Assembly (NCBI GenBank): GCA_009693575.1
Contig: SHWZ01000001.1
Span: 26,095-90,094, forward strand
Origin: Flavobacteriaceae bacterium
GTDB lineage: Bacteria > Bacteroidota > Bacteroidia > UKL13-3
Direction: 5' to 3'
Length of the DNA stretch: 64,000 nucleotides
The notes under the pieces were generated by a model. That model worked only from the letters and a program-made list of their open reading frames with translations, did not search any database and was not told the DNA's origin. Position numbers and translations under genes: made by a program. Below, piece after piece: positions 2,411 to 14,859 of this stretch (position 1 is the first letter of the stretch; every line of letters begins with the position of its first letter).

Positions 2411-3325
2411 TCACTTCCTATTTTTCGTAGCCCGTCCCTTTCCGCCTTTGAAGCTCCTTTTGTCTTCGTTATTTCGTGAAGGAGCTTTGTTTTTTGCAGC
2501 TGCTTCTCCTTTCTGTTTTTGGGTTGGCTTCACAAAATATTTCACTACATTTTTGTCCATTGATGTTTTCACAGACCCTCGTTTCTCCGATTCTGAAACG
2601 GAATTACCTATTAGCTTAAATATTCCATCAAGTTCGAGCTTTGTCAAATCACGCCAATCCCCTTGTGGTAATCCTTGCAGGCTTATATGCATGATGCGGG
2701 TACGTTCTAGTTTGGTCACATTGTAGCCAAAGTGTTCGCACATTCGACGTATCTGTCTGTTGAGGCCTTGTATCAGTGTGATGCGGAACACAAAAGGTGC
2801 TACTTGTTGCACGTTGCATTTTTTTGTCATCACTCCCAGCATGGGCACACCAGTAGACATTGATTCTATAAATTGTGCTGTTACAGGCTTGTCCACTGTT
2901 ACCAAGTATTCTTTTTGGTGGGCATTTTCGGCTCGTAGGATTTTGTTCACAATGTCACCATCGTTGGTGAGGAAAATGAGACCCTGCGAATCTTTATCTA
3001 ACCTACCAATGGGAAACACTCGGCTACTATGGTTCACATAGTTCACTATGTTGCCTTTAGTGCTAGTTTCGGTAGTGCACTCCACTCCCACAGGTTTGTT
3101 GAAAGCAATATAAATCCGTTCTTCAGCCTGCCGAGGTTCAAGGTGCTGCCCGTTCACTACCACCTTGTCACCATGCATTACTAGGTCACCTATCTTTGCT
3201 TTTCTTCCATTGATGTTCACAAGCCCTTTTTCAATAGACCTGTCCGCTTCCCGCCGTGAGCATATACCGCTTTCGGCAATGAATTTATTAAGTCGGATTG
3301 GAGGAGAGTTTTGCATTTTAAGCAC
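2411..3325 (-). CDS. rluB: 23S rRNA pseudouridine synthase, RluB/RsuA family, with S4 domain and Lys-rich tail
   Basis: N-terminal S4 RNA-binding motif [18 protein letters not shown]. Catalytic motif [18 protein letters not shown]. Basic K-rich C-terminus typical of Bacteroidota RluB. Confidence 0.8.
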
Positions 3326-3967
3326 AAAGGAAATGGGTAAAGGTGTTTAGTTGGATTATTGGCTTCAATTTAATAGTGGCTCTTGTAGCTAGTTTCATAG
3401 CCTGGGGCAGGCTCAAGAAAGTCAAACTATTGGAAAAATGAATTTCCTAAAAAATGACACTCCAAGGAAAGTCAACTAAAAACTTTATTTGCTTTTTTGT
3501 GTTTACATTTGTCGTCACAAAACACAAATAGAGCATTGAACAAAGCAATAGCTACCCTATTTATCTTCCTTATCTCATACACGTTTAGTTATGAGGCGGT
3601 TGCCTATTTGGCGAAGCATGTGGCCAATTGTTCGATAGTAGCTACCGATGATTTTGAATGTGAGGAAAACACCAGTGAGCCTGAAAAATCGGACGAAGCA
3701 AAGAAGGAAATAGCCGACGATGATAGGCTGCTGCACAATGGCCACCATCAACTGCCAATGCTTCAGGTGGGCAGCTTGCGGTCGGGACACAGTAGCCACA
3801 TAGCTTTCAGCGACCACAGCAACGAGGTTTACTCGCCGCCTGAAGCCTGATTTGTTTTTTGGGTTGGATTTTTCCTACCTGTTTCTCCCTTTCTTTTTTT
3901 AATTTTAATTTGGCAAGCCACTTAATTGGCATAAAGCCTCAAACGCAATACTTTCTTTTCAAAAAAT

Positions 3968-5545
3968 ATGAGTAATCCTAGCAACAAAGGCAGTGGCCTT
4001 ACTTTCAAGTACCTAAAAAATGACTTGCCATCTGGAATAGTCGTATTCCTAGTCGCTCTCCCACTCTGTCTGGGCATTGCACTTGCTTCAGGGGCTCCGC
4101 TGTTCTCGGGCATCATCGCAGGAATCGTTGGCGGTACGGTTGTGGCATTCACAAGCGGTTCGGCATTGAGCGTAAGTGGGCCAGCCGCTGGACTTACAGT
4201 TATTGTGCTAAATGCAATAACCCAACTGGGCAGTTACGAAGTGTTTTTGTTTGCCGTGGTGCTTGCAGGCTTATTTCAAATTGCACTGGGCTATCTCAAG
4301 GCAGGCTTCATTGGGTACTATTTTCCATCCAGTGTCATCAAGGGAATGTTGGCGGCCATCGGAATTATTTTAATATTGAAACAACTTCCACATGCCATTG
4401 GTTTCGACAAGGATGTGGAGGGTGACGAAGAGTTTATGCAGGCCGATGGGCAGAACACTTTCTCTGAGTTGAGCAATGCCTTCGATTATATTCAGCCCGG
4501 TGCTGTTATTATTGCAGTTATTTCATTGTTTATACTCATTATGTGGGAGCGTCCTTTCCTGAAAAAATATTCATTCTTCAAGATAGTTCCTGGAGCTCTG
4601 TTAGTAGTCGTTCTGGGAATTGTTATTAATGAAATATTCAAGGTAAATGCACCACAGCTATACCTTACCGGCGACAAACTTGTAAGGCTTCCCGTGGCCA
4701 ATTCTGTTAAGGAATTTGTAGGTCAGTTTACCCTGCCCGATTTCAAGGCGTACAGCAATTACCATGTATATGTAGTAGCAATTACCATTGCGATCATTGC
4801 CAGCCTTGAATCGTTGTTGAGTGTTGAAGCCGCCGACAAATTGGATCCTTACAAGCGTAACACACCCGCTAATCAGGAACTGAAAGCTCAGGGGCTAGGT
4901 AACCTTCTTTCTGGAATGATAGGCGGCCTTCCACTCACTGCTGTTATAGTTCGCACCTCGGCCAATATCAATTCAGGTGCAAAAACCAAACTATCTGCCA
5001 TTATTCATGGGGTATTGCTTTTGTTAAGCGTGATTGGGCTAGCCTCTGTGCTCAACAAAATACCACTGGCCTGCCTTGCTGCTCTGTTGCTTGTGGTTGG
5101 ATATAAACTAGCCAGAATATCGCTGTTCAAAACAATGTATAAACTTGGCTGGGATCAGTTCCTGCCATTCATCATCACCGTGGTAGCCATACAGCTCTCT
5201 GACTTGCTTAAAGGCATTGCCGTGGGCATGGTTGTATCGGTATTTTTTATTCTGCGTAACAACTACAAGCGGGCTTACTTTTTTCATAAAGAAACCCACC
5301 ACACAGGCGATACCATAACTATCTCATTGGGCGAAGACGTGACCTTCCTCAACAAAGGCAGCATCGTGCTCACCCTTGCCAATTTGCCCGAAAACGCCAA
5401 AGTAGTGATTGACGGCAGCAAGTCGCAGAACATTGACATGGATGTGCTGGAAATTATCCACGACTTCAAGAATACTGCAGAACTGAAAAACATAACATTA
5501 GAACTAAAGGACATCCCTGAATTAATGGGAATGTCAGGACATTAA
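3968..5545 (+). CDS. SulP family anion transporter (sulfate/bicarbonate permease) with C-terminal STAS domain
   Basis: 525 aa polytopic membrane protein with a SulP signature region around GGLPLTAVIVRTSANINSGAKT. C-terminal soluble STAS-like domain. First gene of a 4-gene + strand run. Confidence 0.85.
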   Translation: MSNPSNKGSGLTFKYLKNDLPSGIVVFLVALPLCLGIALASGAPLFSGIIAGIVGGTVVAFTSGSALSVSGPAAGLTVIVLNAITQLGSYEVFLFAVVLAGLFQIALGYLKAGFIGYYFPSSVIKGMLAAIGIILILKQLPHAIGFDKDVEGDEEFMQADGQNTFSELSNAFDYIQPGAVIIAVISLFILIMWERPFLKKYSFFKIVPGALLVVVLGIVINEIFKVNAPQLYLTGDKLVRLPVANSVKEFVGQFTLPDFKAYSNYHVYVVAITIAIIASLESLLSVEAADKLDPYKRNTPANQELKAQGLGNLLSGMIGGLPLTAVIVRTSANINSGAKTKLSAIIHGVLLLLSVIGLASVLNKIPLACLAALLLVVGYKLARISLFKTMYKLGWDQFLPFIITVVAIQLSDLLKGIAVGMVVSVFFILRNNYKRAYFFHKETHHTGDTITISLGEDVTFLNKGSIVLTLANLPENAKVVIDGSKSQNIDMDVLEIIHDFKNTAELKNITLELKDIPELMGMSGH

Positions 5546-5564
5546 AAATCATTTAACAAAAAAA

Positions 5565-6218
5565 ATGGAGCAATCCTATCAAAAACTAATAACAGGCAAC
5601 AGGATTTATGCAGAAACAAAATTGTTTCAGGATCCTGATTACTTTAACAAATTATCAAAAGGACAAAAGCCTAACTACCTCTGGATTGGATGCAGCGACA
5701 GCCGTGTGCCAGCCAACGAAATAACAAGCACTAAGAGCGGCGAAATATTCGTACACCGCAACATAGCCAATCTGGTTGTGCATACCGATTCAAATATGCT
5801 AAGTGTATTGGAATATGCCGTGAATGTGTTGAAAGTAGAACACATTATTGTATGTGGCCACTACGGTTGTGGGGGCGTTCATGCATCTATGACTAATACT
5901 TTTCACGGCTTCGTTGACAACTGGTTGAGGCATATCAAAGACGTATATCATCACAATGAAGTAGAGTTGAAGGCTATTGAAGACCATGAAGAAAGAGCAA
6001 ATAGACTTACGGAAATGAACGTGATATCACAAGTGCGAAATTTGGCCAAGACTATCATTGTGCAGCAGGCCTGGGATGAAAGGGAACTGCACCTACATGG
6101 CTGGGTATATGGTCTGCACAACGGGCTGGTAAAGGATTTGGCAGTCATACATAATCATCAGGAAGATATTGACCCGATATATCAATACAATATAAGCAAG
6201 GTAACTGCGAACATTTGA
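5565..6218 (+). CDS. Beta-class carbonic anhydrase (cytoplasmic)
   Basis: 217 aa. CSDSRV (Cys43/Asp45/Arg47) and HYGCGG zinc-ligand motifs. No signal peptide. Starts 19 nt after the SulP stop. Confidence 0.85.
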   Translation: MEQSYQKLITGNRIYAETKLFQDPDYFNKLSKGQKPNYLWIGCSDSRVPANEITSTKSGEIFVHRNIANLVVHTDSNMLSVLEYAVNVLKVEHIIVCGHYGCGGVHASMTNTFHGFVDNWLRHIKDVYHHNEVELKAIEDHEERANRLTEMNVISQVRNLAKTIIVQQAWDERELHLHGWVYGLHNGLVKDLAVIHNHQEDIDPIYQYNISKVTANI

Positions 6219-8752
6219 GTATGTCTTCATTTGCATTTGACGAAAAGCATGTGCTGCATGAATTGTGGCATTTCCTGCCAACGCAAACCCCTTTGCGGGA
6301 TTTTATTCACCACAACTCGCTCCATGCCTTTCAGGACATGAAATTTTTTGATGCCATATTCAAGGCATCGAAAATATTTGGGTATCAGGTTACACTTGAA
6401 CTGCGGGATTTCAGAAAACTGTATGAGATTGGACGGATACGGGAGCATATTTTGGAGCAGGTTATTGCAAAAAGGAAAGGCACTGAAAGTATAGGGGAAT
6501 GGAAAGCAAAACTACTTACAGGGGACTACAACGAATTGAATGAGCCACGGATAGGAAACCTACGTAAACATTGGAGGGAAGCCTATCAACTTGACATGGA
6601 TTCATTGGTGCAGCCCCTGCTTTTCAGGATACTTTGTAGCTACCTCGACCAAGGCATTTCGCTATGGGATTTCCCCAACAAGCCTGAAGGATTTTTGGCC
6701 TCGCTTCGTCAATTGGAGAACAACAGCTTCACCAGTTTTTTCAAGACAAAGCGGGCGAAAAAAATGTTGATGGATGGACAGTATACTATTGCACAACTTC
6801 TAAAAATGGTTGTTGGTGATGAAGCTTTTTTTGAGCAATATGTATTCGACCAGCAGTTCAGCCACAGAGGTTGGTCTGGCATGGTAGCCACCGTGGAAGA
6901 ACGCCCCGACACTTTGTTGGATACCAAAATAATTTCACTTCACGACCTGATTATTTTTGAATTGTTGTTGGAAATTGACACTCTTGATTATCATTTTGGA
7001 AGTGATTGGAAACCGCTTTGCACTGATATAAATAACAAGCCTGTGGATTTATTCGGAGATGTTCCGGCAACTGAATTGAATGAAGTATTCACCCTCTGGC
7101 AGGAAGCCTTTGAGTGGAGCTATTACGATGAAGTGCTTGCGGGAATTAAAGCAAGCAATTCTGCTACCCCCTTTGGGGGCAAGGGGGCTACGTCCTTCCA
7201 AGCCATGTTCTGTATAGATGAACGGGAATGTTCTATCCGCAGACATATAGAAAAGGTGGACGCAAATTGTGTAACTTTCGGTACTCCCGGTTTCTTTACG
7301 GTAGAGTTTTATTTCCTGCCTCAAGGAGGAAAATTTTACGATAAACTTTGCCCAGCACCCGTCACTCCAAAATACCTGATCAAGGAATTTGGGGTGCACG
7401 GACATCGGCAGCACGAGATGCTTTACACGAATAAAACGCATACCCTAGTTCCTGGATTTATTTCAACACTCTCCTTGGGGTTTGCTGCTGCCGGACGTTT
7501 GTTCCAGAATATATTCAGACCAAAAATGAGCCCCGCTATTTCCAATGCGTTTACCCACATGAACAAACATTCGCAGCTTACCATTGAAAACAAAAATCTG
7601 GATGATCGGGAAAACGATTTACAGATTGGTTTCACAGTAGAAGAAATGGCGGCAAGGGCTGAAGGGATGCTGCGGGGCATCGGCTTGACAGAGAATTTCG
7701 CACCCTTGGTATATCTTGTTGCACATGGTTCAAGCAGTGCCAATAACCCACACCATGGTGCCCACGATTGTGGTGCATGTAGTGGACGACCCGGTTCAGT
7801 GAATGCCAAAGTGATGTCGTTCATGTTGAATCATGTTGCCGTGCGGGAATTGCTGAACCAGAGAGGAATTAATATACCAAACGAAACACAGTTTGTAGGT
7901 GGGCTGCATGATACCGCGGCGGATGAAGTTGAATTTTATGATGAACAAATCCTGAGTGAAGCCAACCGGGCTGGGCATCTCAAAAATAAAATTGCATTTG
8001 AAAATGCCCTTGATTTGAATGCAAAGGAAAGGTCGAGAAGGTTTGCATCCATCAAGACAAAGAATGGGTTGAAAACTATTCGTAAAGCCATTAAAGACCG
8101 TTCGGTTTCATTGTTTGAGCCAAGGCCGGAACTGGGTCACGGCACAAATTCCCTTTGCATAGTTGGCGGTAGGAATCTGACAAAGGACTTGTTTTTGGAC
8201 AGGCGGGCTTTCCTCAATTCATATAATTACAAAACGGATTTGGATGGGAAATTCCTCACTGGAATCATGAAGCCTTTAGGACCAGTTTGCGGAGGTATCA
8301 ATCTGGAATATTATTTTTCACGGGTTGACAACCACAAGTTGGGGGCTGGCACCAAATTGCCACATCATGTGATGGGCTTGATAGGTGTAGCCAATAGTGT
8401 TGATGGGGATTTACGACCCGGTCTTCCGCTGCAAATGATCGAAGTACACGACCCAGTCCGCCTGCTGATTATCGTTGAACATTTTCCTGAAGTGGTGTTA
8501 AAAACCATTCAATCCGTCCCTGAAATGTATGAATGGTTTATCAACGAATGGGTGCACCTGATGGTGCTCAATCCTGAAACAAAAACGTTCCATTATTTTA
8601 AGGAAGGCAGCTTCACTGAATATACTCCACTTGTACAAGTGATACCAGCCTTGAACGATGTGAATGCATTCATCGAATCGGCCAAGGAGATGAAGACCAA
8701 CTACATTGTGCATGCTACGCAGGAAAATTTACCCGTTCACACACTCAACTAA
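6215..8752 (+). CDS. dabA: DabA, DUF2309 family probable inorganic carbon transporter subunit (DAB complex)
   Basis: 845 aa soluble protein. Putative Zn-ligand positions match those described for DabA: FCIDERECS (C333/D335) and VAHGSSSANNPHHGAHDCGACSG (H504, C519/C522). Its start overlaps the CA stop by 4 nt, and it is followed 9 nt later by a NuoL-like membrane protein. Confidence 0.8.
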   Translation: MSMSSFAFDEKHVLHELWHFLPTQTPLRDFIHHNSLHAFQDMKFFDAIFKASKIFGYQVTLELRDFRKLYEIGRIREHILEQVIAKRKGTESIGEWKAKLLTGDYNELNEPRIGNLRKHWREAYQLDMDSLVQPLLFRILCSYLDQGISLWDFPNKPEGFLASLRQLENNSFTSFFKTKRAKKMLMDGQYTIAQLLKMVVGDEAFFEQYVFDQQFSHRGWSGMVATVEERPDTLLDTKIISLHDLIIFELLLEIDTLDYHFGSDWKPLCTDINNKPVDLFGDVPATELNEVFTLWQEAFEWSYYDEVLAGIKASNSATPFGGKGATSFQAMFCIDERECSIRRHIEKVDANCVTFGTPGFFTVEFYFLPQGGKFYDKLCPAPVTPKYLIKEFGVHGHRQHEMLYTNKTHTLVPGFISTLSLGFAAAGRLFQNIFRPKMSPAISNAFTHMNKHSQLTIENKNLDDRENDLQIGFTVEEMAARAEGMLRGIGLTENFAPLVYLVAHGSSSANNPHHGAHDCGACSGRPGSVNAKVMSFMLNHVAVRELLNQRGINIPNETQFVGGLHDTAADEVEFYDEQILSEANRAGHLKNKIAFENALDLNAKERSRRFASIKTKNGLKTIRKAIKDRSVSLFEPRPELGHGTNSLCIVGGRNLTKDLFLDRRAFLNSYNYKTDLDGKFLTGIMKPLGPVCGGINLEYYFSRVDNHKLGAGTKLPHHVMGLIGVANSVDGDLRPGLPLQMIEVHDPVRLLIIVEHFPEVVLKTIQSVPEMYEWFINEWVHLMVLNPETKTFHYFKEGSFTEYTPLVQVIPALNDVNAFIESAKEMKTNYIVHATQENLPVHTLN

Positions 8753-8761
8753 ACAACATCC

Positions 8762-10630
8762 ATGTCAGAACTATTACAACTATTTATTTGGATTCCATTT
8801 GTTGGGTTACTTGTTGGCTTTTTTGTTCCAAGCAAAAACGAACGAATTATTTCGGGTATTGCTATTGCAAACTTGAGTGTTTATTTATTAGGCTTGGTTG
8901 CATTTCTTGTTTATTGGACCCTGAACGACTTCCCGGTTCTCGACAGAAAACATATTGTGCTCTTTGAAACCGACAATATGGCGTTTTTCATTGATTATTA
9001 CTTCGACAAGTTGACCGCTGTATTTTCTGTGGTTGGTGCTTTCGTCGCTTTATTGGTAAACATCTTTAGCCGCTACTATATTCACCGCGACGAAGGCTTC
9101 AAACGGTTTTTTAGCACCATAATGCTTTTCTTCCTGGGCTATAATATTATGGTTTTTTCCGGCAATTTTGAAACATTCTTTGTCGGCTGGGAAATATTGG
9201 GAATATGTTCTTTCTTGCTCATTGCCTTTTACAGGGACAGGTATTTGCCTGTAAAAAACAGCCTGAAAGTTATATCCATTTATCGTGTTGGTGATATATG
9301 CCTCATGCTTGCCATGTGGATGAGCCACCACCTTTGGCACCAAAACATCACCTTCCTGAAACTGAACGATGCGAACTTGGTTACGGAACATTTGCAAGCC
9401 AATGGCGGGTATCCTGTATTCATAGCTGCAATGTTTCTGATAGCCGCTGCTGTCAAGTCTGCACAGTTGCCTTTCTCAAGTTGGCTGCCCCGTGCCATGG
9501 AAGGTCCAACTACCTCCAGTGCTATATTTTACGGTTCACTTTCTGTACATCTAGGTGTCTTCCTTTTGCTGCGAACCTATCCTTATTGGGAAAGCATGGC
9601 AGCAATTAAGACTTCCGTCATTGTTCTCGGAATTGTTACAAGCCTTGTCGCCAATGGTATTGCAAGGGTTCAGTCGTCAGTGAAGGTACAGATTGCCTAT
9701 TCGTCCATAGCCCAAATAGGGCTGATGTTCATAGAAGTTGGATTGGATTTTCATATACTTGCCTTGGTGCATTTTGCTGGCAATGCTTTCCTGCGAACCT
9801 ATCAATTGCTGGTATCTCCATCGGTGATGAGCTACCTCATCCATAACATGGTTTTTAATTTTGTTCCGAAGAACCAAAGCAATGTAAACTCCATTTATGG
9901 CAAGTTAAAAAATTCCATATATATGCTTTCCATCAAGGAATGGAACTTGGATTTCTTGCTTCAAAAATTTCTTTGGAATCCATTCAAATGGGCTGGCAGG
10001 CAGTTGAACTTCCTAACTTCAAGAACATTTGCATTCTTGTTTGTTACAATCATTATCGTACTTCTGTATTTTTACTTTAGCCCTGAAATACCAGAAGTAA
10101 TTGTAACATTTTCACCGATGCTTTTCTCTCTATTCGGATTGTTGTTTGTCCTGCGTGCATTTGTAGAAAAAGCGAATGCCTTGACCGCTTGGAGCCTTTT
10201 GCTAGCTGGACAGGTTTGCATTACACTTTCGGTTGCACTACTCAATCCAAAGTTTGGATTAGGTCAAGTTTCCATTTACCTCAGCGGCATCTTACTCTCT
10301 TCGCTTTTGGGCTACTATGTATTGTTAAAAATAAGGAAAGTTGACAACGATATTAGTCTCAATCGCTTTCATGGATATGTATATGAACAACCTAAATTGG
10401 GTTTCTTATTCCTGCTGTCCTGTCTTGGTTTTGTAGCATTGCCACTCACCCCTGCTTTTGTAGGAATTGATATTCTATTCAGTCAAATATTCAAACACGA
10501 AATGGGTATTATTATTTGTACATCATGTAGCTTTTTGGTCATGGAAATATCGGTGCTTCGCATATACGCCCGCATTTTTATGGGGCAAAGCAAACGGACT
10601 GACCATGCGATGGCTTATCGGTCGTCGTAA
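8762..10630 (+). CDS. dabB: DabB, NuoL/MrpA/ND5-like proton-pumping membrane subunit (DAB complex)
   Basis: 622 aa with many TM helices. Complex I antiporter-like (PF00361-type) core reads ...AMEGPTTSSAIFYGSLSVHLGVFLLLR... Immediately downstream of dabA. Confidence 0.8.
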   Translation: MSELLQLFIWIPFVGLLVGFFVPSKNERIISGIAIANLSVYLLGLVAFLVYWTLNDFPVLDRKHIVLFETDNMAFFIDYYFDKLTAVFSVVGAFVALLVNIFSRYYIHRDEGFKRFFSTIMLFFLGYNIMVFSGNFETFFVGWEILGICSFLLIAFYRDRYLPVKNSLKVISIYRVGDICLMLAMWMSHHLWHQNITFLKLNDANLVTEHLQANGGYPVFIAAMFLIAAAVKSAQLPFSSWLPRAMEGPTTSSAIFYGSLSVHLGVFLLLRTYPYWESMAAIKTSVIVLGIVTSLVANGIARVQSSVKVQIAYSSIAQIGLMFIEVGLDFHILALVHFAGNAFLRTYQLLVSPSVMSYLIHNMVFNFVPKNQSNVNSIYGKLKNSIYMLSIKEWNLDFLLQKFLWNPFKWAGRQLNFLTSRTFAFLFVTIIIVLLYFYFSPEIPEVIVTFSPMLFSLFGLLFVLRAFVEKANALTAWSLLLAGQVCITLSVALLNPKFGLGQVSIYLSGILLSSLLGYYVLLKIRKVDNDISLNRFHGYVYEQPKLGFLFLLSCLGFVALPLTPAFVGIDILFSQIFKHEMGIIICTSCSFLVMEISVLRIYARIFMGQSKRTDHAMAYRSS

Positions 10631-10633
10631 GTT

Positions 10634-10930
10634 TTAATCTACTTCTTCCAACCGTTCCATGCTCCAAGCCTCGGCTTTTTTGGCAAAATGAATTTTTGTC
10701 AAAGCCCAGGTTTCTGCAAAAAGCTCAGAGTTACGATAGGCATCCAAGTCTTGCTGGCTTTGCCAATGGCTGTATGTGTAAATGATTTCGGGGCGATCAA
10801 TTTCGTGCAGCAGTTCAAGGTGTGTGCAACCTGAAAAATTGCGGATACGCTGTTTGGAATTATTGAACACTGCCAGAAAATCATTGACACTTTCAGGCTT
10901 GAAAGTCATTTTTACGATTCGGATAAGCAT
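10634..10930 (-). CDS. Antibiotic biosynthesis monooxygenase (ABM)-like small protein
   Basis: 98 aa with ferredoxin-like ABM-domain composition. Convergent with dabB. Confidence 0.45.
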   Translation of the reverse strand: MLIRIVKMTFKPESVNDFLAVFNNSKQRIRNFSGCTHLELLHEIDRPEIIYTYSHWQSQQDLDAYRNSELFAETWALTKIHFAKKAEAWSMERLEEVD

Positions 10931-11099
10931 GAGGCAAAATTACTGTAGGCAATATGGAACCGCCATTGCGAGATTGCACGGAACGTGCAACAAAGCAACC
11001 TCCCAACTCTTGGGAAGAAGTCTTGTCCGCTGAAAGAGAAGATTGTTTCGTTCGTCGAACTGAAGGTAACTTTTCCGTTTGTAAAGCATCTTTGCAGCC

Positions 11100-12455
11100 A
11101 TGCAACAAGAAACAGAGCAAAAACCTGTCGGGTTTTATTCAGCGGCGGCCATTGTGGTGGCCAATATTATTGGGGTGGGCGTGTTCACCAGCCTTGGCTA
11201 TCAAGTGCAGGGCATCCACGATGTTACCGCCTTGATGATGCTGTGGGTGGTGGGCGGCATCATCGCTCTCTGCGGTGCATTGACCTATGGCGAAATTGGG
11301 ACGGTGTTTCCCAAAAGCGGCGGTGAGTACCAATACCTGAGCAAACTCTATCATCCTTTTGTTGGCTTCTTGAGCGGCTGGGTGAGCAGCACTATCGCTT
11401 TTACTGCACCCGTGGCGGCTGCTTCGGTGGCCATGGCTGCTTATTTGCACAAGGTTTTTCCTGCCTGCGACACTCAGCTAACTGCTCTCGCAGTTGTGGC
11501 CGGTATAACCACCATCCACGCCACCACATTGAAAGCTGGTTTCAAATTTCAGAATATTTTCAGCACTGGCAAAGTGATATTGATTATCATCTTTATTATC
11601 TGTGGTTTTTCGATGGGGAAACATACAGACATACATTTTACCTTCAATGAAGATACTTGGAAATATGTATTCAGTGGTGATTTTGCCGAGAGCCTGGTGT
11701 ATGTTGCCTACGCATACAGCGGCTGGAATGCTGCAGCCTACTTAGCTGGTGAAATTCGCAATCCCCGCCGCAATTTGCCCATGGCTTTGGTGGGTGGCAC
11801 CATGTTGGTGATGTTCCTTTATTTTTTGATTAACTATGTTTTCCTTTCCACCATCCCTATTGATACCCTTGCGGCAGAGCAGGCTAAGGATTTCAGCAAG
11901 CCAGTAGAGGTAGGCTATTTTTCGGCTGATTATATCTTTGGACAAGGTGGTGCTAACACCATGGCATTGATTATTTCTGTTTTACTTATCAGCACCATCT
12001 CAGCCATGATTATAGCGGGGCCACGTGTATTGGCAGCCATGGGCGAGGATATTAAAGTGCTTAGTTTCTTCTCTCAAAAAACAAAAAAGGGTATACCCGC
12101 CCGTGCGGTCATTGGTCAAAGTTTGGTTTCCGTAATTCTCATTCTCACCGCTTCCTTCGACCAGTTATTGATATATGTTGGCTTCACACTCCAGTTGTTT
12201 AGTTTCCTCACAGTCATGGGTATTTTCATTGTCCGCTACCGCAAACTGAAAGGGCCACAGGGGGCTTACCGCACGTTTGGCTACCCCATTACCCCTATCA
12301 TTTTTCTGTTGCTAAGCGGTTGGAGTCTCTGGTTTATTGCAGATAAAAAGCCAACGGAATCTTTGTATGGCTTGGCCACCGTAGGCATTGGTGCATTGGT
12401 GTGGTTACTCAACAAAAAAATTAGCAAAGAAGAACAATCAACTGCCAGTAATTGA
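11100..12455 (+). CDS. APC superfamily amino acid permease
   Basis: 451 aa, 12 predicted TM helices. N-terminal region FYSAAAIVVANIIGVGVFTSLG is typical of APC transporters. Confidence 0.8.
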   Translation: MQQETEQKPVGFYSAAAIVVANIIGVGVFTSLGYQVQGIHDVTALMMLWVVGGIIALCGALTYGEIGTVFPKSGGEYQYLSKLYHPFVGFLSGWVSSTIAFTAPVAAASVAMAAYLHKVFPACDTQLTALAVVAGITTIHATTLKAGFKFQNIFSTGKVILIIIFIICGFSMGKHTDIHFTFNEDTWKYVFSGDFAESLVYVAYAYSGWNAAAYLAGEIRNPRRNLPMALVGGTMLVMFLYFLINYVFLSTIPIDTLAAEQAKDFSKPVEVGYFSADYIFGQGGANTMALIISVLLISTISAMIIAGPRVLAAMGEDIKVLSFFSQKTKKGIPARAVIGQSLVSVILILTASFDQLLIYVGFTLQLFSFLTVMGIFIVRYRKLKGPQGAYRTFGYPITPIIFLLLSGWSLWFIADKKPTESLYGLATVGIGALVWLLNKKISKEEQSTASN

Positions 12456-12465
12456 ACCGAGCCAC

Positions 12466-12957
12466 TTACTTTTTCCAAATAATTGCAGAATAGCTTGTAT
12501 CAGACGAATTCTCCCCAATTTGGGTAACACTGAAACTGTAATGAAGGTGGTAAAATTTGTTTTCAAACGCTAATAAATCTTCTAGATTCTCTTCAGTTGT
12601 ATTCTGTTTTTTCTCAGGCACAAAGGCCAGCTTTAACATTTCGAATCTGTACATATCCTTCAGGTTTTTAGTAGTGGAATAAACCACCAGTGGCTTACCA
12701 TCAGCATAGTCTTTTAAGGTGATAGAACCAACAGTGCTTTTATTCTTATTCGTATAAATGTAGCTGGTAAAAGTTGTGTAGTTATCGTTCTCATTTTTGC
12801 TGTCAACTGTATATCCTAAGGTTTTCATCTTGGAGTCAAATCCCACATAGCCACTGCTGTTTGCCAACAAGGTAAGTTGTTGCAAGCGTAGGTGCTCAGG
12901 CGAAATGTACCTAAAACCTAAACAAGTCAACAACAAAAGGATAAATGTGTATTTCAA
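12466..12957 (-). CDS. Hypothetical lipoprotein/secreted protein
   Basis: Probable TTG start gives MKYTFILLLLTCLGF, a signal peptide with a lipobox-like LTC. The tool ORF extends to 13038, but that extension lacks signal-peptide logic. No recognisable domain. Confidence 0.35.
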   Translation of the reverse strand: MKYTFILLLLTCLGFRYISPEHLRLQQLTLLANSSGYVGFDSKMKTLGYTVDSKNENDNYTTFTSYIYTNKNKSTVGSITLKDYADGKPLVVYSTTKNLKDMYRFEMLKLAFVPEKKQNTTEENLEDLLAFENKFYHLHYSFSVTQIGENSSDTSYSAIIWKK

Positions 12958-13063
12958 AACGAGGCTAAGTTGCAAAATTAAGGTTTGGATAAATAAGGAA
13001 AATAGAGAGTGCCGAGATAAGAAATGAGCAATCACCATAGATTATCATTAGTTTTGCCAGCAA

Positions 13064-13463
13064 AAGGCAAACCGACTTGTCGCTCCTTTAGCAATAAGGG
13101 TGAGGAAAGTCCGGGCAACACAGGGCACCGCCCTTCCTAACGGGAAGGAACTTGGCTGTAATGGCTGGGTTACAGATAGTGTCACAGAAAACAAACCGCC
13201 TTTTTGCTGTCCTTCGGCTTCGCTCAGGATGACAAAAAGGTAAGGGTGAAAAGGCGGGGTAAGAGCCCACCGCATTCCGTGTGAGCGGGATGGCACGATA
13301 AACCTGGCGGGTTGCAAGGCCAAATAAGCAAGGGAACGAGGGCTGCCCGCCCGAGTAGCTCTCCGGAGCAATGCCTTTGTGGGTAGGCTGCATGAGCCAC
13401 TGCGTGAGCAATGGCCCAGATAAATGACAGGATAAAACAGAACCCGGCTTATGGGTTTGCCTT
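13064..13463 (+). ncRNA. rnpB: RNase P RNA (bacterial type A), rnpB
   Basis: Conserved P4 strand GAGGAAAGTCCGGGC. Also GGTAAGGGTGAAAAGGCGGGGTAAGAGCCCACC, the AGGGAA...GGCTG region, and ACAGAACCCGGCTTA at the 3' end. The 5' aaggcaaacc pairs with the 3' gggtttgcc (P1). Overlapped only by two implausible minus-strand ORFs. Confidence 0.85.
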
Positions 13464-13467
13464 TTTT

Positions 13468-13875
13468 TTACATCCCCGCCAAAGCCATGATACAATCAAA
13501 CTCCACTGGCTTCACCGTCTGAACACTCAGTCTTCCCAACCTTACCAAGTCCATGTTTTGCAATTTTTTGTCGGCCTTCACGGTGGCAAGTGATACAGTT
13601 TTTTTCAACGCTTTGAAAGGAGAGAGGTCCACCACCAGCCATGCCGTTTCTTCGGTGGTTGGGTCTTGGTAGGCTTCTTTCACCACCTTGGCTATGCCAA
13701 CAATCTCCAGCCCTTCGTTGCTGTGGTACCACAAAACAAGGTCACCCTTTTTCATGTCACGCAGGTTGTTTCGGGCAGCATAGTTGCGAACGCCATCCCA
13801 CATCGTTTTTTTGTCTTTTTGAAATTGCTCCCAACTGTATTTGTGGGGTTCTGATTTTACGAGCCAGTAGTTCAT
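13468..13875 (-). CDS. EVE (PUA-like) domain protein
   Basis: 135 aa. MNYWLVKSEPHKYSWEQF...WDGVRNYAARNNLRDMKKGDLVLWYHS matches the EVE/DUF55 fold signature. Abuts the rnpB 3' end. Confidence 0.7.
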   Translation of the reverse strand: MNYWLVKSEPHKYSWEQFQKDKKTMWDGVRNYAARNNLRDMKKGDLVLWYHSNEGLEIVGIAKVVKEAYQDPTTEETAWLVVDLSPFKALKKTVSLATVKADKKLQNMDLVRLGRLSVQTVKPVEFDCIMALAGM

Positions 13876-13965
13876 GGGTGAAGTACGATTTTGGAGTTAC
13901 GAGGTACGATTTTGAGAGATAGAAGTTGGAAGAGGGGAGATGGAAGAATGGTTCAAATTTCTATT

Positions 13966-14859
13966 TTATAATTGACTCCTTAGTATAGCCAGTCCTTCTT
14001 CAAAACTATGTGGTTCATAGCCGAAAGAAGCCTTTGCTTTGTCTATATTGAATCCTGTAATTGGCGGGCGTTTGGCGGGTTGTTTTATATCGGCTGATTT
14101 GGCACGTTTCACCAGCGATTTATCAAGCCCCCAGTGGTCGGCCACCCGGTAAACCAAGTCGATGATGCTCATAAAATCTTTGCCTGAAATGTTATAAATG
14201 CCTTCGGCCATGCTTGTAGCACACTGAAAGCAGCCCATGGCCAAGTCCTCTGCCAAGGTAGGGGTGCGAAACTGGTCGTCAACCACGTTGATAGTCTCTC
14301 CTTTTTCCAAGGCACCCTTTGCCCAAAGCACCACATTGCTGCGGCTCATGTTCAGGGTTATCCCATAAACCAATACGGTACGGAGAATGCTCCAACGTTG
14401 AGCTGTCAGCATCACCGCCTGTTCGCCTTTCAGCTTGCCAAGGGCATAGTAGCTGAGTGGGTTTGGCCGCTCGTCCTCTTTCAGCGGGCCATGTGTGCCA
14501 TCAAAAATAAAATCGGTAGAGATATGTATAAGGTGAGCACCCACATTGTTGGCCGCACGAGCAAGGTATCCGGGGGATAGGGTATTCATCAGGTCTGCAG
14601 ATTCTTTCTCGGTTTCGCAGGCATCCACATTGGTCATGGCGGCGGTGTTGATGATGCAATGTGGCCTATGCCTTGCCACTGTGTCGAGCACCTCCTCTAG
14701 GCTGGTCACATCCATGCTTTCATAAAAATAACCAAACTGATTTGGATAGCGGTCTTCGCCTTTTCCAGTGGCTATCAGTTCGTGTTCAGGATGTTTGAGC
14801 AGCAGGTCGGTGAGCTTTTGGCCAGTGAGTCCGTTGCTTCCGGTTACCAATATTTTCAT
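13966..14859 (-). CDS. rfbD: dTDP-4-dehydrorhamnose reductase-like NAD(P)-dependent sugar reductase (RmlD family)
   Basis: True start likely MKILVTGSNGLTGQKL (Rossmann GxxGxxG) at 14859; the tool ORF begins 28 codons upstream. RmlD-like length and motifs. Confidence 0.7.
   Translation of the reverse strand: MKILVTGSNGLTGQKLTDLLLKHPEHELIATGKGEDRYPNQFGYFYESMDVTSLEEVLDTVARHRPHCIINTAAMTNVDACETEKESADLMNTLSPGYLARAANNVGAHLIHISTDFIFDGTHGPLKEDERPNPLSYYALGKLKGEQAVMLTAQRWSILRTVLVYGITLNMSRSNVVLWAKGALEKGETINVVDDQFRTPTLAEDLAMGCFQCATSMAEGIYNISGKDFMSIIDLVYRVADHWGLDKSLVKRAKSADIKQPAKRPPITGFNIDKAKASFGYEPHSFEEGLAILRSQL

Follow-up and report, generated by a model that had tools for sequence, protein, structure and literature searches.

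A candidate inorganic carbon operon of Bacteroidota that joins a SulP permease and a carbonic anhydrase to a divergent DabAB pair

A soluble carbonic anhydrase (CA) sits uneasily beside a pump that accumulates bicarbonate, and the presence of both in one run of genes in the window (the whole 64-kb stretch of DNA that was analysed) raises the question of what such a module does and whether its DabAB pair is the machine known from other bacteria. The sequence-only reading was right to point to this tension, and Fan et al. 2021 argue likewise (PMC8552792). Its coordinates, strand, junctions and families for four + strand genes were reproduced exactly by ORF calls and a Pfam search. The region 3536–10630 is most likely a five-gene operon encoding a small membrane-anchored protein, SulP, a type II β-CA, DabA and DabB, with the following features.

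3504–3511, + strand: candidate Bacteroidetes-type −7 promoter box TACATTTG (TAnnTTTG), 25 nt 5′ of the small-protein start
3536–3850, + strand: overlooked small gene, first of the module (104 aa, TTG start; jackhmmer and profile search)
3968–5545, + strand: SulP/SLC26-family anion permease with a short, divergent STAS-like tail (525 aa; PF00916, 216.9 bits)
5565–6218, + strand: type II (Can/ECCA-like) cytoplasmic β-CA (217 aa; PF00484 Pro_CA, 192.3 bits)
6215–8752, + strand: DabA, divergent 'His-type' or COGNAT clade C (845 aa; PF10070, 703.3 bits)
8762–10630, + strand: DabB, NuoL-like predicted ion-translocating membrane subunit (622 aa; PF00361, 129.3 bits; PF00662, 42.5 bits)
10606–10629, + strand: terminator-like hairpin at the dabB stop codon (10-pair stem with 4 GC pairs, T-rich tail; pattern scan)
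10634–10930, − strand: convergent ABM-domain gene after dabB (PF03992, 53.6 bits)

The packing is as tight as had been described, with junctions of 19 nt between sulP and the CA gene, −4 nt between the CA gene and dabA, and 9 nt between dabA and dabB. The second of these becomes +2 nt if dabA starts at ATG 6221, as in the public annotation (843 aa), rather than at TTG 6215. The genes of the module are probably co-transcribed, and a pattern scan revealed no prominent internal promoter- or terminator-like sites in the operon. The hairpin at its 3′ end is at most suggestive, because the total of such sites in the region does not exceed the shuffle expectation.

The 640 bp upstream of sulP (3326–3967), which had been taken to hold no clear gene, contain a conserved gene that is absent from the gene calls of the source MAG. 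In its 104-aa product, an N-terminal lysine and hydrophobic anchor is followed by an acidic linker of Glu, Lys and Ser and, at the C-terminus, by the conserved motif ...SDxSxxVYSPPE; the protein is 96% identical to P0121. Homologues were found by jackhmmer in 22 of 80 DabA loci, invariably on the same strand and at the head of the module. The profile matches at least 167 database proteins, 92–114 aa long and every one 'hypothetical', and neither they nor the window protein matched a Pfam family. The order small protein, SulP, CA recurs in independent contexts with or without DabAB (without it in Flavobacterium), while in Daejeonella the small gene directly precedes dabA and dabB. The box TACATTTG is the sole + strand TAnnTTTG in 3300–4000, and the interval from the small gene to sulP has no copy; it is weak evidence for a promoter because ~0.4 matches are expected there by chance. 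Neither a sigma-70-like site nor an Rfam RNA was found in the upstream region.

The predicted families PF00916, PF00484, PF10070 and PF00361 were all matched, and only PF01740 fell short, so that the SulP part of the former SulP/STAS label stands whereas the STAS part does not (17.6 bits against a cut-off of 22.6). SulP missed all NCBIfam equivalog cut-offs (DauA, 203 of 614; BicA, 154 of 880), and its substrate specificity cannot be read from its sequence. The best solved relative is the transmembrane domain of the bicarbonate transporter BicA (6ki1, 113 bits). The β-CA scores 249.9 bits against NF007756 (cut-off 251) and 233.9 bits against E. coli Can (1i6o), and it retains all zinc ligands (C43/D45/H99/C102). 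The cytoplasmic location claimed for it is borne out, as no N-terminal hydrophobic segment was detected. The non-catalytic bicarbonate pocket is also intact (W40/R65/Y182, equivalent to W39/R64/Y181 of ECCA), and work on ECCA and HICA is said to show that this pocket confers inhibition by bicarbonate.

The combination of these genes had been thought unusual; the neighbourhood survey shows it to be the majority architecture in this DabA lineage. SulP, CA, DabA and DabB follow one another on the same strand in 41 of the 66 related loci with enough upstream sequence to be informative, an order far beyond chance that spans Chitinophagales, Saprospiraceae, Flavobacteriales, Sphingobacteriales and Methylophilaceae MAGs. 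Wherever a locus extends far enough, DabA is followed by DabB, and the two genes overlap or lie a few bases apart. Loci of Daejeonella and Cytophagales carry DabAB without an adjacent co-oriented SulP. In Saprospiraceae, SulP (35% identical to that of the window) is fused to DabA in a 1,390-aa protein present on at least six contigs, and the locus reads small protein, SulP::DabA, DabB, CA.

Alignment of DabA, which covers positions 2–747 of the 747 in PF10070, with H. neapolitanus DabA2 (PDB 9rd0_A; E = 9e-58) confirmed the proposed Cys/Asp/His/Cys quartet, C333/D335 corresponding to C351/D353 and H504/C519 to H524/C539. R337, H565 and D570 are likewise kept. Relative to all reference DabAs, the replacements are S356 to E338, A376 to P358, E444 to L419, D648/W649 to S632/L633, W656 to L640 and L658 to H642. 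Thus, where the DAB1, DAB2, MpsAB and haloarchaeal references share Glu444 and DW..RPEWGL with Leu658, window-type DabA has Leu419 and SL..RPELGH with His642. E444A/Q cripples DAB2 (PMC13144422), and the Leu at 658 in DAB1 and DAB2 has been proposed to make bicarbonate binding less favourable (10.64898/2026.05.01.722082). His642 restores a hydrogen-bond donor, suggesting that the site is more conventional and may be reversible. The window pair belongs to a large branch, and of the 150 nearest 50%-identity clusters at least 109 are His-type.

DabB comprises a NuoL-homologous core (residues 7–366) and a novel, lineage-specific C-terminal domain of ~255 aa. In hhalign the core matched NuoL with E = 2.8e-33 (columns 7–366) and canonical DabB with E = 6.2e-21 (columns 80–358), and neither was matched past residue 366; the C-terminal domain bears a weak resemblance to ND4/MrpD bundles. 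In the AF2 model (pLDDT 79), TM1–11 superpose on NuoL. The references for DAB1, DAB2, MpsAB and haloarchaea share a non-Glu residue at NuoL-144 and a His/His/Lys axis. Window DabB keeps E144, R175, D178 and K232, the hydrophobic residue at NuoL-144 having reverted to Glu, and has Y257/N341/R345 at the His/His/Lys positions. In DAB2, I151E halves function, and H260A, H343A and K347A in TM8 and TM11 of DabB are crippling (PMC13144422). The expected grouping of the protein with DabB/MpsA was not recovered, since it falls outside the canonical DabB clade (100% support), and its sequence lies nearer to that of E. coli NuoL. It is unsafe to treat the pair as another copy of the characterised DAB/MpsAB machine: residues tied to vectorial coupling in the 2026 structures are systematically replaced. 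Judged by its sequence, the window DabAB belongs to a divergent branch lacking residues that, according to recent structures, make known DAB pumps one-directional, and its separate position (His-type, COGNAT clade C) implies that its coupling mechanism probably differs from those of DAB1, DAB2 and MpsAB. The literature searched contained no expression or functional report on any member of the His-type branch.

On balance, the module probably serves inorganic carbon handling in an aerobic heterotroph, keeping cytoplasmic bicarbonate available to carboxylases when CO2 is scarce. In the proposed mechanism, DabA, with its complete Cys2-His zinc site and Asp-Arg dyad, would dock on DabB, whose TM1–11 core would conduct H+ (or Na+), so that CO2 hydration could be linked to the ion-motive force. 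SulP would carry bicarbonate over the inner membrane in physical contact with DabA and/or CA, and the soluble Can-type CA would quicken CO2/HCO3− equilibration at low bicarbonate. Because it is of type II and its allosteric pocket is intact, the CA should shut itself off as bicarbonate rises, which would limit a futile cycle. This can be no general answer to the futile-cycle problem, since in 28 of the 41 SulP>CA>DabA loci the slot is occupied by a type I-like CA in which the allosteric Trp and Tyr are missing. E. coli lacking CA is rescued by DAB systems (10.1101/476713), and DAB/MpsAB-type systems serve heterotrophs (PMC6689103; PMC8552792). A separate observation runs against the carbon-supply reading, namely that the vectorial-coupling residues of DAB1 and DAB2 are replaced in both DabA and DabB.

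It is also conceivable, though unlikely, that metabolic CO2 is turned into cytoplasmic bicarbonate by DabAB and CA and then exported by SulP, either in return for another anion such as sulfate, chloride or an organic acid or to maintain acid-base balance. The ion-motive force would then be spent on a bicarbonate gradient powering anion uptake or pH control, and not on a carbon store. Many SLC26 relatives are anion/bicarbonate exchangers, SulP fails to reach the BicA equivalog score, a soluble CA encoded alongside would do no harm, and the possibly reversible His642 site would fit. The SulP::DabA fusion is easier to explain if the product of one part is the substrate of the other, and it fits enzyme-to-carrier hand-over together with SulP::β-CA fusions, which have long been known (Felce and Saier 2004, as cited in PMC10219603). 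Against such an exchange stand the kinship of SulP with a bicarbonate importer, the Daejeonella and Cytophagales loci without an adjoining SulP, the lack of conserved second-anion metabolism genes beside the module in the inspected relatives, and the role of every characterised DAB/MpsAB system in carbon supply.

Reverse operation, in which the CO2/bicarbonate reaction would drive H+ or Na+ outward and generate membrane potential, was proposed for the YbcC-NuoL family by COGNAT (PMC5700660) and is echoed in the naming of MpsAB as a membrane-potential-generating system (PMC6689103; PMC8552792). The NuoL-type Glu144/Arg175/Asp178/Lys229 gating ion pairs, dismantled in canonical DabBs, are retained here. 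We consider it improbable: CO2 hydration yields little free energy under physiological conditions, an uncoupler abolishes the activity of DAB2, which behaves as a gradient consumer (10.1101/476713), and the change of two of three TM11 proton-path residues (N341, R345) argues against efficient NuoL-like pumping. A classical CO2-concentrating mechanism that supplies the RuBisCO of an autotroph or mixotroph, a task performed by DAB1 and DAB2 in chemolithoautotrophs (in Nitrobacter, the DAB1 locus adjoins cbbLS and carboxysome genes), is very improbable here, since no RuBisCO, carboxysome or PII gene lies within 10 kb in the window's genome and all inspected relatives, a carboxysomal mechanism is incompatible with free cytoplasmic CA, and the hosts are typical heterotrophic Bacteroidota genera. 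That the 622-aa protein is a complex I NuoL incidentally beside DabA, as its higher score against NuoL/ND5 than DabB2, its Glu144 and frequent NuoL annotations might suggest, is refuted for practical purposes by the constant DabA adjacency and by the absence of nuoK/M/N or any other PF00361 gene from the 64-kb window, in line with the Tyr/Asn/Arg axis and a C-terminal domain without detectable homology to NuoL TM12–16 or the lateral helix.

Among known systems, DAB2 of H. neapolitanus (PDB 9rd0) shares with the window a PF10070 protein and a PF00361 NuoL-like subunit with a similar TM1–11 core, the Cys2-His zinc site, Asp-Arg dyad and His585/Asp590 relay of DabA, and a hydrophobic 'finger/elbow' hairpin. 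It differs in its dabB>dabA order, its divergent LysR gene, the DabA replacements described above, and a DabB of 551 aa with Ile151, the essential His260/His343/Lys347 and an unrelated C-terminal domain. DAB1 (DabABC; Thermocrinis albus, H. neapolitanus, Nitrobacter) has the same two core families and a third membrane element, DabC (~250 aa, a NuoM-like half), where window DabB has its extra helical domain; any likeness between these two is unproven (Smith-Waterman z = 5, hhalign E = 0.35). The window has no separate dabC or PII gene, and DabA1 is of the Leu type, with both Glu444 and DW..RPEWGL. Heterotrophs have DAB-type systems that supply bicarbonate at atmospheric CO2, namely MpsAB in Staphylococcus and ndhF-mpsB-canC in Bacillus subtilis. 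A β-CA gene belongs to the operon in Bacillus, including B. subtilis (10.64898/2026.09.08.750065) and B. anthracis, and in S. sciuri (PMC8552792; 10.64898/2026.09.08.750065). Unlike the window, these systems place mpsA (nuoL-like) first, have a Leu-type MpsB with all canonical hallmarks and an MpsA with the His/His/Lys axis and no Glu144, and carry neither SulP nor a small leader protein. The direct SulP–CA neighbourhood recalls the pairs and fusions attributed to Felce and Saier 2004, here extended by DabAB, with DabA in the fused position in Saprospiraceae; compared with BicA, the window SulP is far below the equivalog score and has a short, sub-threshold STAS tail. Cyanobacterial NDH-1(3/4) CupA/CupB also set a CA-like head on an NdhF/NuoL-type subunit for energised CO2 hydration, but they are unrelated to PF10070 and coupled to redox-driven NDH-1, whose genes are absent from the window locus. 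The 'clade C' that COGNAT described among YbcC operons (Klimchuk et al. 2017, PMC5700660) is the same lineage as the window DabA; in it, ybcC/dabA lies 5′ of a nuoL homologue with a COG0659 sulfate permease frequently nearby. That description predates the DAB function, and its main text is silent on the CA, the small protein, the fusion of SulP to DabA and the divergence of DabAB at residue level.

The module runs on the + strand from a small first gene to the end of dabB, between rluF and an ABM-domain gene:

2411–3325, divergent: rluF, an unrelated flanking gene
3536 (TTG start, within an ORF at 3497–3850), + strand: small protein gene, 104 aa, start fixed by family alignment
3968–5545, + strand: SulP/SLC26 permease, 525 aa (PF00916, 216.9 bits)
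5565–6218, + strand: beta-carbonic anhydrase (CA), 217 aa (PF00484, 192.3 bits)
6215–8752, + strand: DabA, 845 aa from TTG (PF10070, 703.3 bits against a cut-off of 25, profile positions 2–747 of 747)
8762–10630, + strand: DabB partner, 622 aa (PF00361, 129.3 bits; PF00662, 42.5 bits)
10634–10930, − strand: ABM-domain gene (PF03992, antibiotic biosynthesis monooxygenase-like), convergent flank with an amino-acid permease beyond

The sequence-only reading had described the four larger genes as one compact operon, and its observations held: all four ORFs lie on the + strand at exactly the coordinates it gave, with junctions of 19 nt (SulP/CA), −4 nt or +2 nt (CA/DabA) and 9 nt (DabA/DabB), and the Pfam search it had proposed matched PF00916, PF00484, PF10070 over its full length and PF00361. 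The two values for the second junction reflect an ambiguous DabA start (6215–6223), in which a start at TTG 6215 gives a 4-nt overlap with the CA stop and ATG 6221 lies 2 nt past it; the public annotation of the identical protein (P0001) picks ATG 6221, giving 843 aa. Neither a second copy of any module gene nor any other PF00361 or nuo gene was found in the 64-kb window. Recent horizontal transfer into this genome was rejected, as the module does not differ from its flanks in GC content.

The only −7 box of the Bacteroidetes type (TAnnTTTG) between 3300 and 4000 lies at 3504–3511, ahead of the small gene, and none separates the small gene from sulP; because about 0.4 such motifs would be expected by chance, the box is weak evidence for a promoter. 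An Rfam scan of 3200–11200 at E ≤ 1 returned no regulatory RNA, and a sigma-70 promoter scan, which is unsuited to Bacteroidota, found sites to be rarer than in shuffled sequence. The ABM gene ends 4 nt past the dabB stop on the opposite strand, and a hairpin at 10606–10629, common to both genes, is a possible bidirectional terminator. An ORF of ~32 codons with a GTG start (3343–3441, + strand) lies between rluF and the small gene, and a single hydrophobic helix was predicted in its product by eye.

To place the arrangement among its relatives, one genome per species was scanned, yielding 80 loci with DabA proteins 58–73% identical to that of the window, from Chitinophagales, Saprospiraceae, Flavobacteriales, Sphingobacteriales, Cytophagales and five Methylophilaceae metagenome-assembled genomes (MAGs). 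Gene order was counted in loci with 2.6 kb or more of upstream sequence, of which there are 66. The order SulP>CA>DabA>DabB, which had been called unusual, occurs in 41 of these 66 loci, and the SulP–CA–DabAB combination is thus the norm in this DabA lineage. DabA>DabB alone accounts for 21 loci, mostly from Cytophagales, and the exact form of the window, small gene>SulP>type II CA>DabA, for five. In every related locus that reaches far enough dabB adjoins dabA, as it does here. A LysR regulator of the kind seen in canonical DAB loci was sought and is absent from the window; among the relatives only Flavobacteriales have one, and these LysRs are 21–27% identical to most proteobacterial DAB-linked LysRs, a generic level.

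Several relatives carry variants of the arrangement. Two loci (L004, 4158–9363; L053, 2543–7665) each have two genes for SulP and two for CA, arranged in L053 as CA, SulP, small protein, SulP, CA; a third (L087, 9978–11345) has two CA genes in tandem, and four others (L013, L017, L018 and L035) have an extra Can-like CA after dabB. The five Methylophilaceae (Betaproteobacteria) MAGs (L042, L045, L049, L055 and L067), which come from different studies, hold a complete SulP>type I-like CA>DabA>DabB module at ~7500–14400 in each, with a DabA 63–64% identical to the Bacteroidota one and a module GC content matching the flanks. This suggests that the whole module crossed between phyla long ago, or else that mis-binning is systematic. 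Isolates that carry the module include Flavobacterium laiguense LB2P30, Dyadobacter sp. Leaf189, Runella zeae DSM 19591 and Emticicia sp. CRIBPO.

Two cryo-EM studies from 2026 attribute one-way hydration to a finger glutamate, the leucine of a DW..RPEWGL motif, a His/His/Lys set in TM11 and the loss of NuoL Glu144, and call these features family-wide (PMC13144422; 10.64898/2026.05.01.722082). The branch to which the window belongs keeps the zinc site and changes every residue that those studies invoke. The metal site proposed by the sequence-only reading was borne out by HMMER alignment to the solved H. neapolitanus DabA2/DabB2 structure (9rd0), in which C333/D335 and H504/C519 correspond to C351/D353 and H524/C539 of DabA2. 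R337 (= R355), H565 (= H585) and D570 (= D590) are also kept, and all 12 sampled lineage members share the zinc ligands and the Asp–Arg dyad. The zinc-site residues bind zinc and are required for function in DabA2 (PMC13144422).

For the remaining positions, reference loci were drawn from annotated plasmids and chromids of Gammaproteobacteria (Thiodictyon, Pantoea, Pseudoalteromonas, Salinivibrio), Alphaproteobacteria (Aminobacter, Phaeobacter), Actinomycetota (Nocardia), Haloarchaea (Haloarcula) and Staphylococcus pettenkoferi (MpsAB type), together with Nitrobacter hamburgensis (DAB1 type; dabB>dabC>dabA>PII beside cbbLS-csoS2), DabA2 from 9rd0 and E. coli NuoL/M/N. All 11 reference DabAs have Ser/Ala at 356, Ala376, Glu444, Asp648-Trp649, Trp656 and Leu658, whereas the 12 sampled lineage members uniformly have Glu, Pro, Leu/Phe/Met/Gln, Ser-Leu, Leu and His at these positions (E338, P358, L419, S632-L633, L640 and H642 in the window). 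Glu444 lies on a membrane-inserted finger and stands in for NuoL Lys399/Asp400, and E444A and E444Q are dead in DAB2 (PMC13144422). The window has Leu419 in its place, with the hydrophobic hairpin itself retained; the HMMER and MAFFT alignments, although gapped here, are consistent with each other. The DW(xxx)RPEWGL motif connects DabB TM11 with the active site, and its leucine replaces a bicarbonate-stabilising hydrogen-bond donor that is Gln in plant beta-CA and His in CsoSCA (PMC13144422; 10.64898/2026.05.01.722082). The window instead reads SLFEPRPELGH, with His642 opposite this leucine (L658 in DabA2, L825 in T. albus). Its lid and loop motifs are GTPGFFT and NNPHHGAHDCGACSG as against GI(A/G)GFFG and NNPxxxxLDCGACxG, so that the GFF and NNP...DCGAC cores are kept and flanking conserved positions are changed.

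The histidine-bearing form is widespread. A HMMER search of 1.84 billion representatives returned 3,505 DabA clusters, 1,618 of them at E ≤ 1e-30. Among the best 150 clusters (50% identity), at least 109 carry RPE-x-(G/N)-H (His-type), and RPEWGL is absent from all of them; the others are either fragmentary or were matched by the pattern at an unrelated RPE. The branch takes in thousands of Bacteroidota proteins as well as members from Methylophilaceae and Bacteriovoracaceae, and named examples include Dyadobacter sp. Leaf189 (labelled 'putative inorganic carbon transporter subunit DabA' by NCBI) and a Bacteriovoracaceae MAG. Long metagenomic His-type DabAs of 900–1,100 aa and 34–41% identity were also seen (P0419, P0426, P0450, P0492 and ~60 similar proteins), with the motif DL.QPRPE[YLC]GHAT and an insertion of ~120–170 residues after the first ~90. 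The module is ordinary in its lineage, but that lineage is a large variant of the DAB system without the residues used to explain vectorial CO2 hydration.

The DabB partner also departs from the references. Lineage members keep NuoL Glu144/Arg175/Asp178/Lys229, with Glu144 in 12 of 12, whereas the ten reference DabB/MpsA proteins all have I/V/A/T/S/L/G/F at NuoL-144. In DabB2 this residue is Ile151, the change from Glu144 to a non-acidic residue leaves the channel 'open', and I151E reduces function to half (PMC13144422). Tyr257, Asn341 and Arg345 of the window align with DabB2 His260/His343/Lys347 (NuoL H254/H338/K342), at which H260A, H343A and K347A are strongly deleterious in DAB2 (PMC13144422); H337 (= NuoL H334), K308 and S314 are kept. 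The reference DabBs retain NuoL His254/His334/His338/Lys342 and have nothing aligned opposite Lys399/Asp400.

A neighbour-joining tree (471 columns, 100 bootstraps, a single NuoL outgroup) recovered a canonical DabB clade with 100% support that does not include the window type, which forms a separate clade in a trichotomy with NuoL. The 622-aa protein, for which grouping with DabB/MpsA had been set as a test, therefore falls outside the canonical clade. It is not a NuoL either, as the window lacks nuo genes and the C-terminal half of the protein cannot be superposed on NuoL. Profile comparison matched it to NuoL over residues 7–366 (E = 2.8e-33) and to canonical DabB over residues 80–358 (E = 6.2e-21), and detected no homology to either for residues 367–622. 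An AF2 model (pLDDT 79.3, pTM 0.83) superposes on NuoL over TM1–11 only; its 50 best Foldseek matches, in a structure set reaching to releases of 2026-04-08 that may lack 9rd0, include no 9rd0 chain. The C-terminal domain modelled in isolation (pLDDT 80.7) forms a bundle of about seven helices, including a broken helix, and gave only weak Foldseek matches (E ≥ 0.011), the best of them to ND4/NuoM, MrpD and NdhD (~4 Å, ~175–180 columns, E 0.015–0.1). It contains a TM12-like motif, LPLTPAFVGID (560–570), in which P561/T563/P564/F566/G568/D570 are invariant and which aligns weakly with NuoL 389–400 (z = 2.2). An apparent retention of NuoL Asp400 in the MAFFT alignment was rejected, as D397, the residue aligned with it, is part of an amphipathic helix and no profile homology extends past residue 366. 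Descent of the C-terminus from a fused DabC is a lead only, since a Smith–Waterman z of 5.07 against Nitrobacter DabC (0 of 300 shuffles) stands against an hhalign E of 0.35. Public records often label DabB homologues (P0241–P0360) 'NADH-quinone oxidoreductase subunit L', and such mis-annotation, widespread in the branch, could inflate complex I calls in metabolic reconstructions of Bacteroidota.

The permease falls under all NCBIfam equivalog cut-offs (DauA, sulP and BicA; for BicA NF050096, 154.5 against 880), and the solved structure most closely related to it is that of the BicA membrane domain. Its tail is short, and the isolated C-terminus scores 17.6 bits for STAS (PF01740) against a cut-off of 22.6. 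In Saprospiraceae a protein of 1,390 aa (P0362), which recurs at this length on six contigs or more, joins a SulP half (residues 8–501, 35% identical to the SulP of the window) to a DabA half (548–1387, 53%). This fusion, in parallel with the classical SulP::beta-CA fusions, argues for physical coupling of permease and DabA; SulP–CA fusions were reportedly described by Felce and Saier in 2004. The fusion locus (L103/L104, 7001–11173) reads small anchored acidic protein>SulP::DabA>DabB (622 aa)>weak Pro_CA, and the 125-aa product of its first gene was not detected by the HMM of the window small-protein family. NCBI labels P0362 'Na-translocating system protein MpsB', and the Pro_CA of this locus (181 aa, weak score) may be degenerate.

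The CA of the window is of the Can/ECCA type (1i6o, 233.9 bits; NF007756, 249.9, just below the cut-off of 251), with zinc ligands C43/D45/H99/C102 and no signal sequence. Bicarbonate is an allosteric inhibitor of type II CAs (ECCA/HICA), and their non-catalytic pocket for it is complete here (W40/R65/Y182, corresponding to type II Trp39/Arg64/Tyr181). Among the relatives, the CA slot is filled in 13 loci by a Can-like type II enzyme 51–78% identical to that of the window, and in 28 loci by a type I-like enzyme that is 24–29% identical and lacks the allosteric Trp and Tyr.

The region upstream of sulP, in which the sequence-only reading saw no clear gene, encodes the conserved 104-aa protein. 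Homologues were found by jackhmmer in 22 of 80 DabA loci, invariably on the same strand and first in the module, and a profile search found at least 167 database proteins of 92–114 aa, all labelled 'hypothetical' and without a Pfam domain. In family members M-K/N-K is followed by a stretch of ~18 hydrophobic residues and then by an acidic linker of Glu/Lys/Ser, and the C-terminal motif is ...SSDYSxxVYSPPE, its Pro-Pro being invariant. Public annotation of this genome leaves the interval blank, so the gene was missed by gene callers here; P0121 is 96% identical to its product. Members found independently of DabA head small>SulP>CA(>CA) operons in Flavobacterium, which have a divergent LysR and no DabAB, and in one further locus they head small>SulP>CA>DabA>DabB; in Daejeonella it is small>DabA>DabB. 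Because it heads operons both with and without DabAB, including that of Daejeonella, the small gene is a genuine fifth component, tied primarily to SulP–CA. In the Flavobacterium loci without DabAB (L085–L089, ~6900–12100, with one or two beta-CAs), a LETM1_RBD-domain gene is always convergent downstream; it is also present in L090, where DabAB occurs.

Of the readings considered, the best supported is a module of five genes for inorganic carbon, through which an aerobic heterotroph would keep its carboxylases supplied with bicarbonate when CO2 is low. In this reading DabAB would hydrate CO2 with ion coupling and SulP would carry bicarbonate, both working in close physical association with the soluble CA. 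The observation in the sequence-only reading is confirmed, and its interpretation is partly supported. Its concern that a soluble CA would undo the work of a bicarbonate-building pump is real, and Fan et al. argue likewise (PMC8552792). In this window, self-inhibition of the type II CA could ease the paradox; allosteric shut-off was rejected as a general answer to the futile cycle, because most relatives hold a type I-like CA.

A more radical reading, which we consider unlikely, is a mechanistically distinct third kind of DAB: a SulP–DabA–DabB supercomplex with NuoL-style gated coupling and the small protein as a component. Its bicarbonate-binding CA site, more conventional in having His for Leu, would hand bicarbonate directly to or from SulP, and coupling would run through the Glu144 ion pairs, the Tyr/Asn/Arg axis and the private C-terminal bundle rather than a finger glutamate. 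That bundle may be a fused DabC-like half-subunit, and the small anchored acidic protein would then be the fourth component. This machine might run in both directions, be coupled to Na+, or drive anion exchange where a simple pump would trap CO2. Rather improbable in our judgement is a looser departure, in which bicarbonate is handed over to an exporting or exchanging SulP, or the machine is simply reversible; there is room for it in view of the SulP::DabA fusion, the hydrogen-bond donor regained in DabA and a DabB gate resembling that of NuoL. The His-type branch amounts to a natural experiment on how a carbonic anhydrase becomes vectorial; it also offers a handle on the role of SulP–CA pairs, and it brings an uncharacterised small protein with it.

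In the literature searched, DAB in heterotrophs (10.1101/476713) and DAB plus CA operons in Bacillus (PMC8552792; 10.64898/2026.09.08.750065) were already published, and neither a named third class ('DAB3') nor an experiment on a Bacteroidota or His-type DAB was found. The references have dabB>dabA and a DabB of 455–565 aa, whereas the lineage of the window reverses the order to dabA>dabB, has a DabB of 619–625 aa and is linked, sometimes by fusion, to a SulP permease and a soluble CA. Six reference loci have a divergent LysR, which the window lacks. DAB1 has a separate small membrane subunit, DabC, which is missing from the window operon, and the small protein, with its single hydrophobic segment, is of unrelated design. 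On plasmid 1 of Nitrobacter hamburgensis (L102, 1–8168) DAB1 is duplicated, a second DUF2309 gene with its own PII gene lying immediately upstream of the dabB-dabC-dabA-PII cassette, and the pair adjoins LysR and the cbbLS-csoS2 carboxysome genes. The closest precedent is the COGNAT study of 2017 (Klimchuk et al.), which predates the function of DAB and does not mention carbonic anhydrase in its main text (PMC5700660). It sorts YbcC operons into three clades: clade A, in which nuoL-like>ybcC is accompanied by a divergent LysR; clade B, with PII at the 3′ end; and clade C, with ybcC upstream of a nuoL homologue, often accompanied by a COG0659 sulfate permease and COG1008 (PMC5700660). With ybcC upstream of its nuoL homologue and a COG0659 permease nearby, the window matches clade C as the study defines it (PMC5700660).
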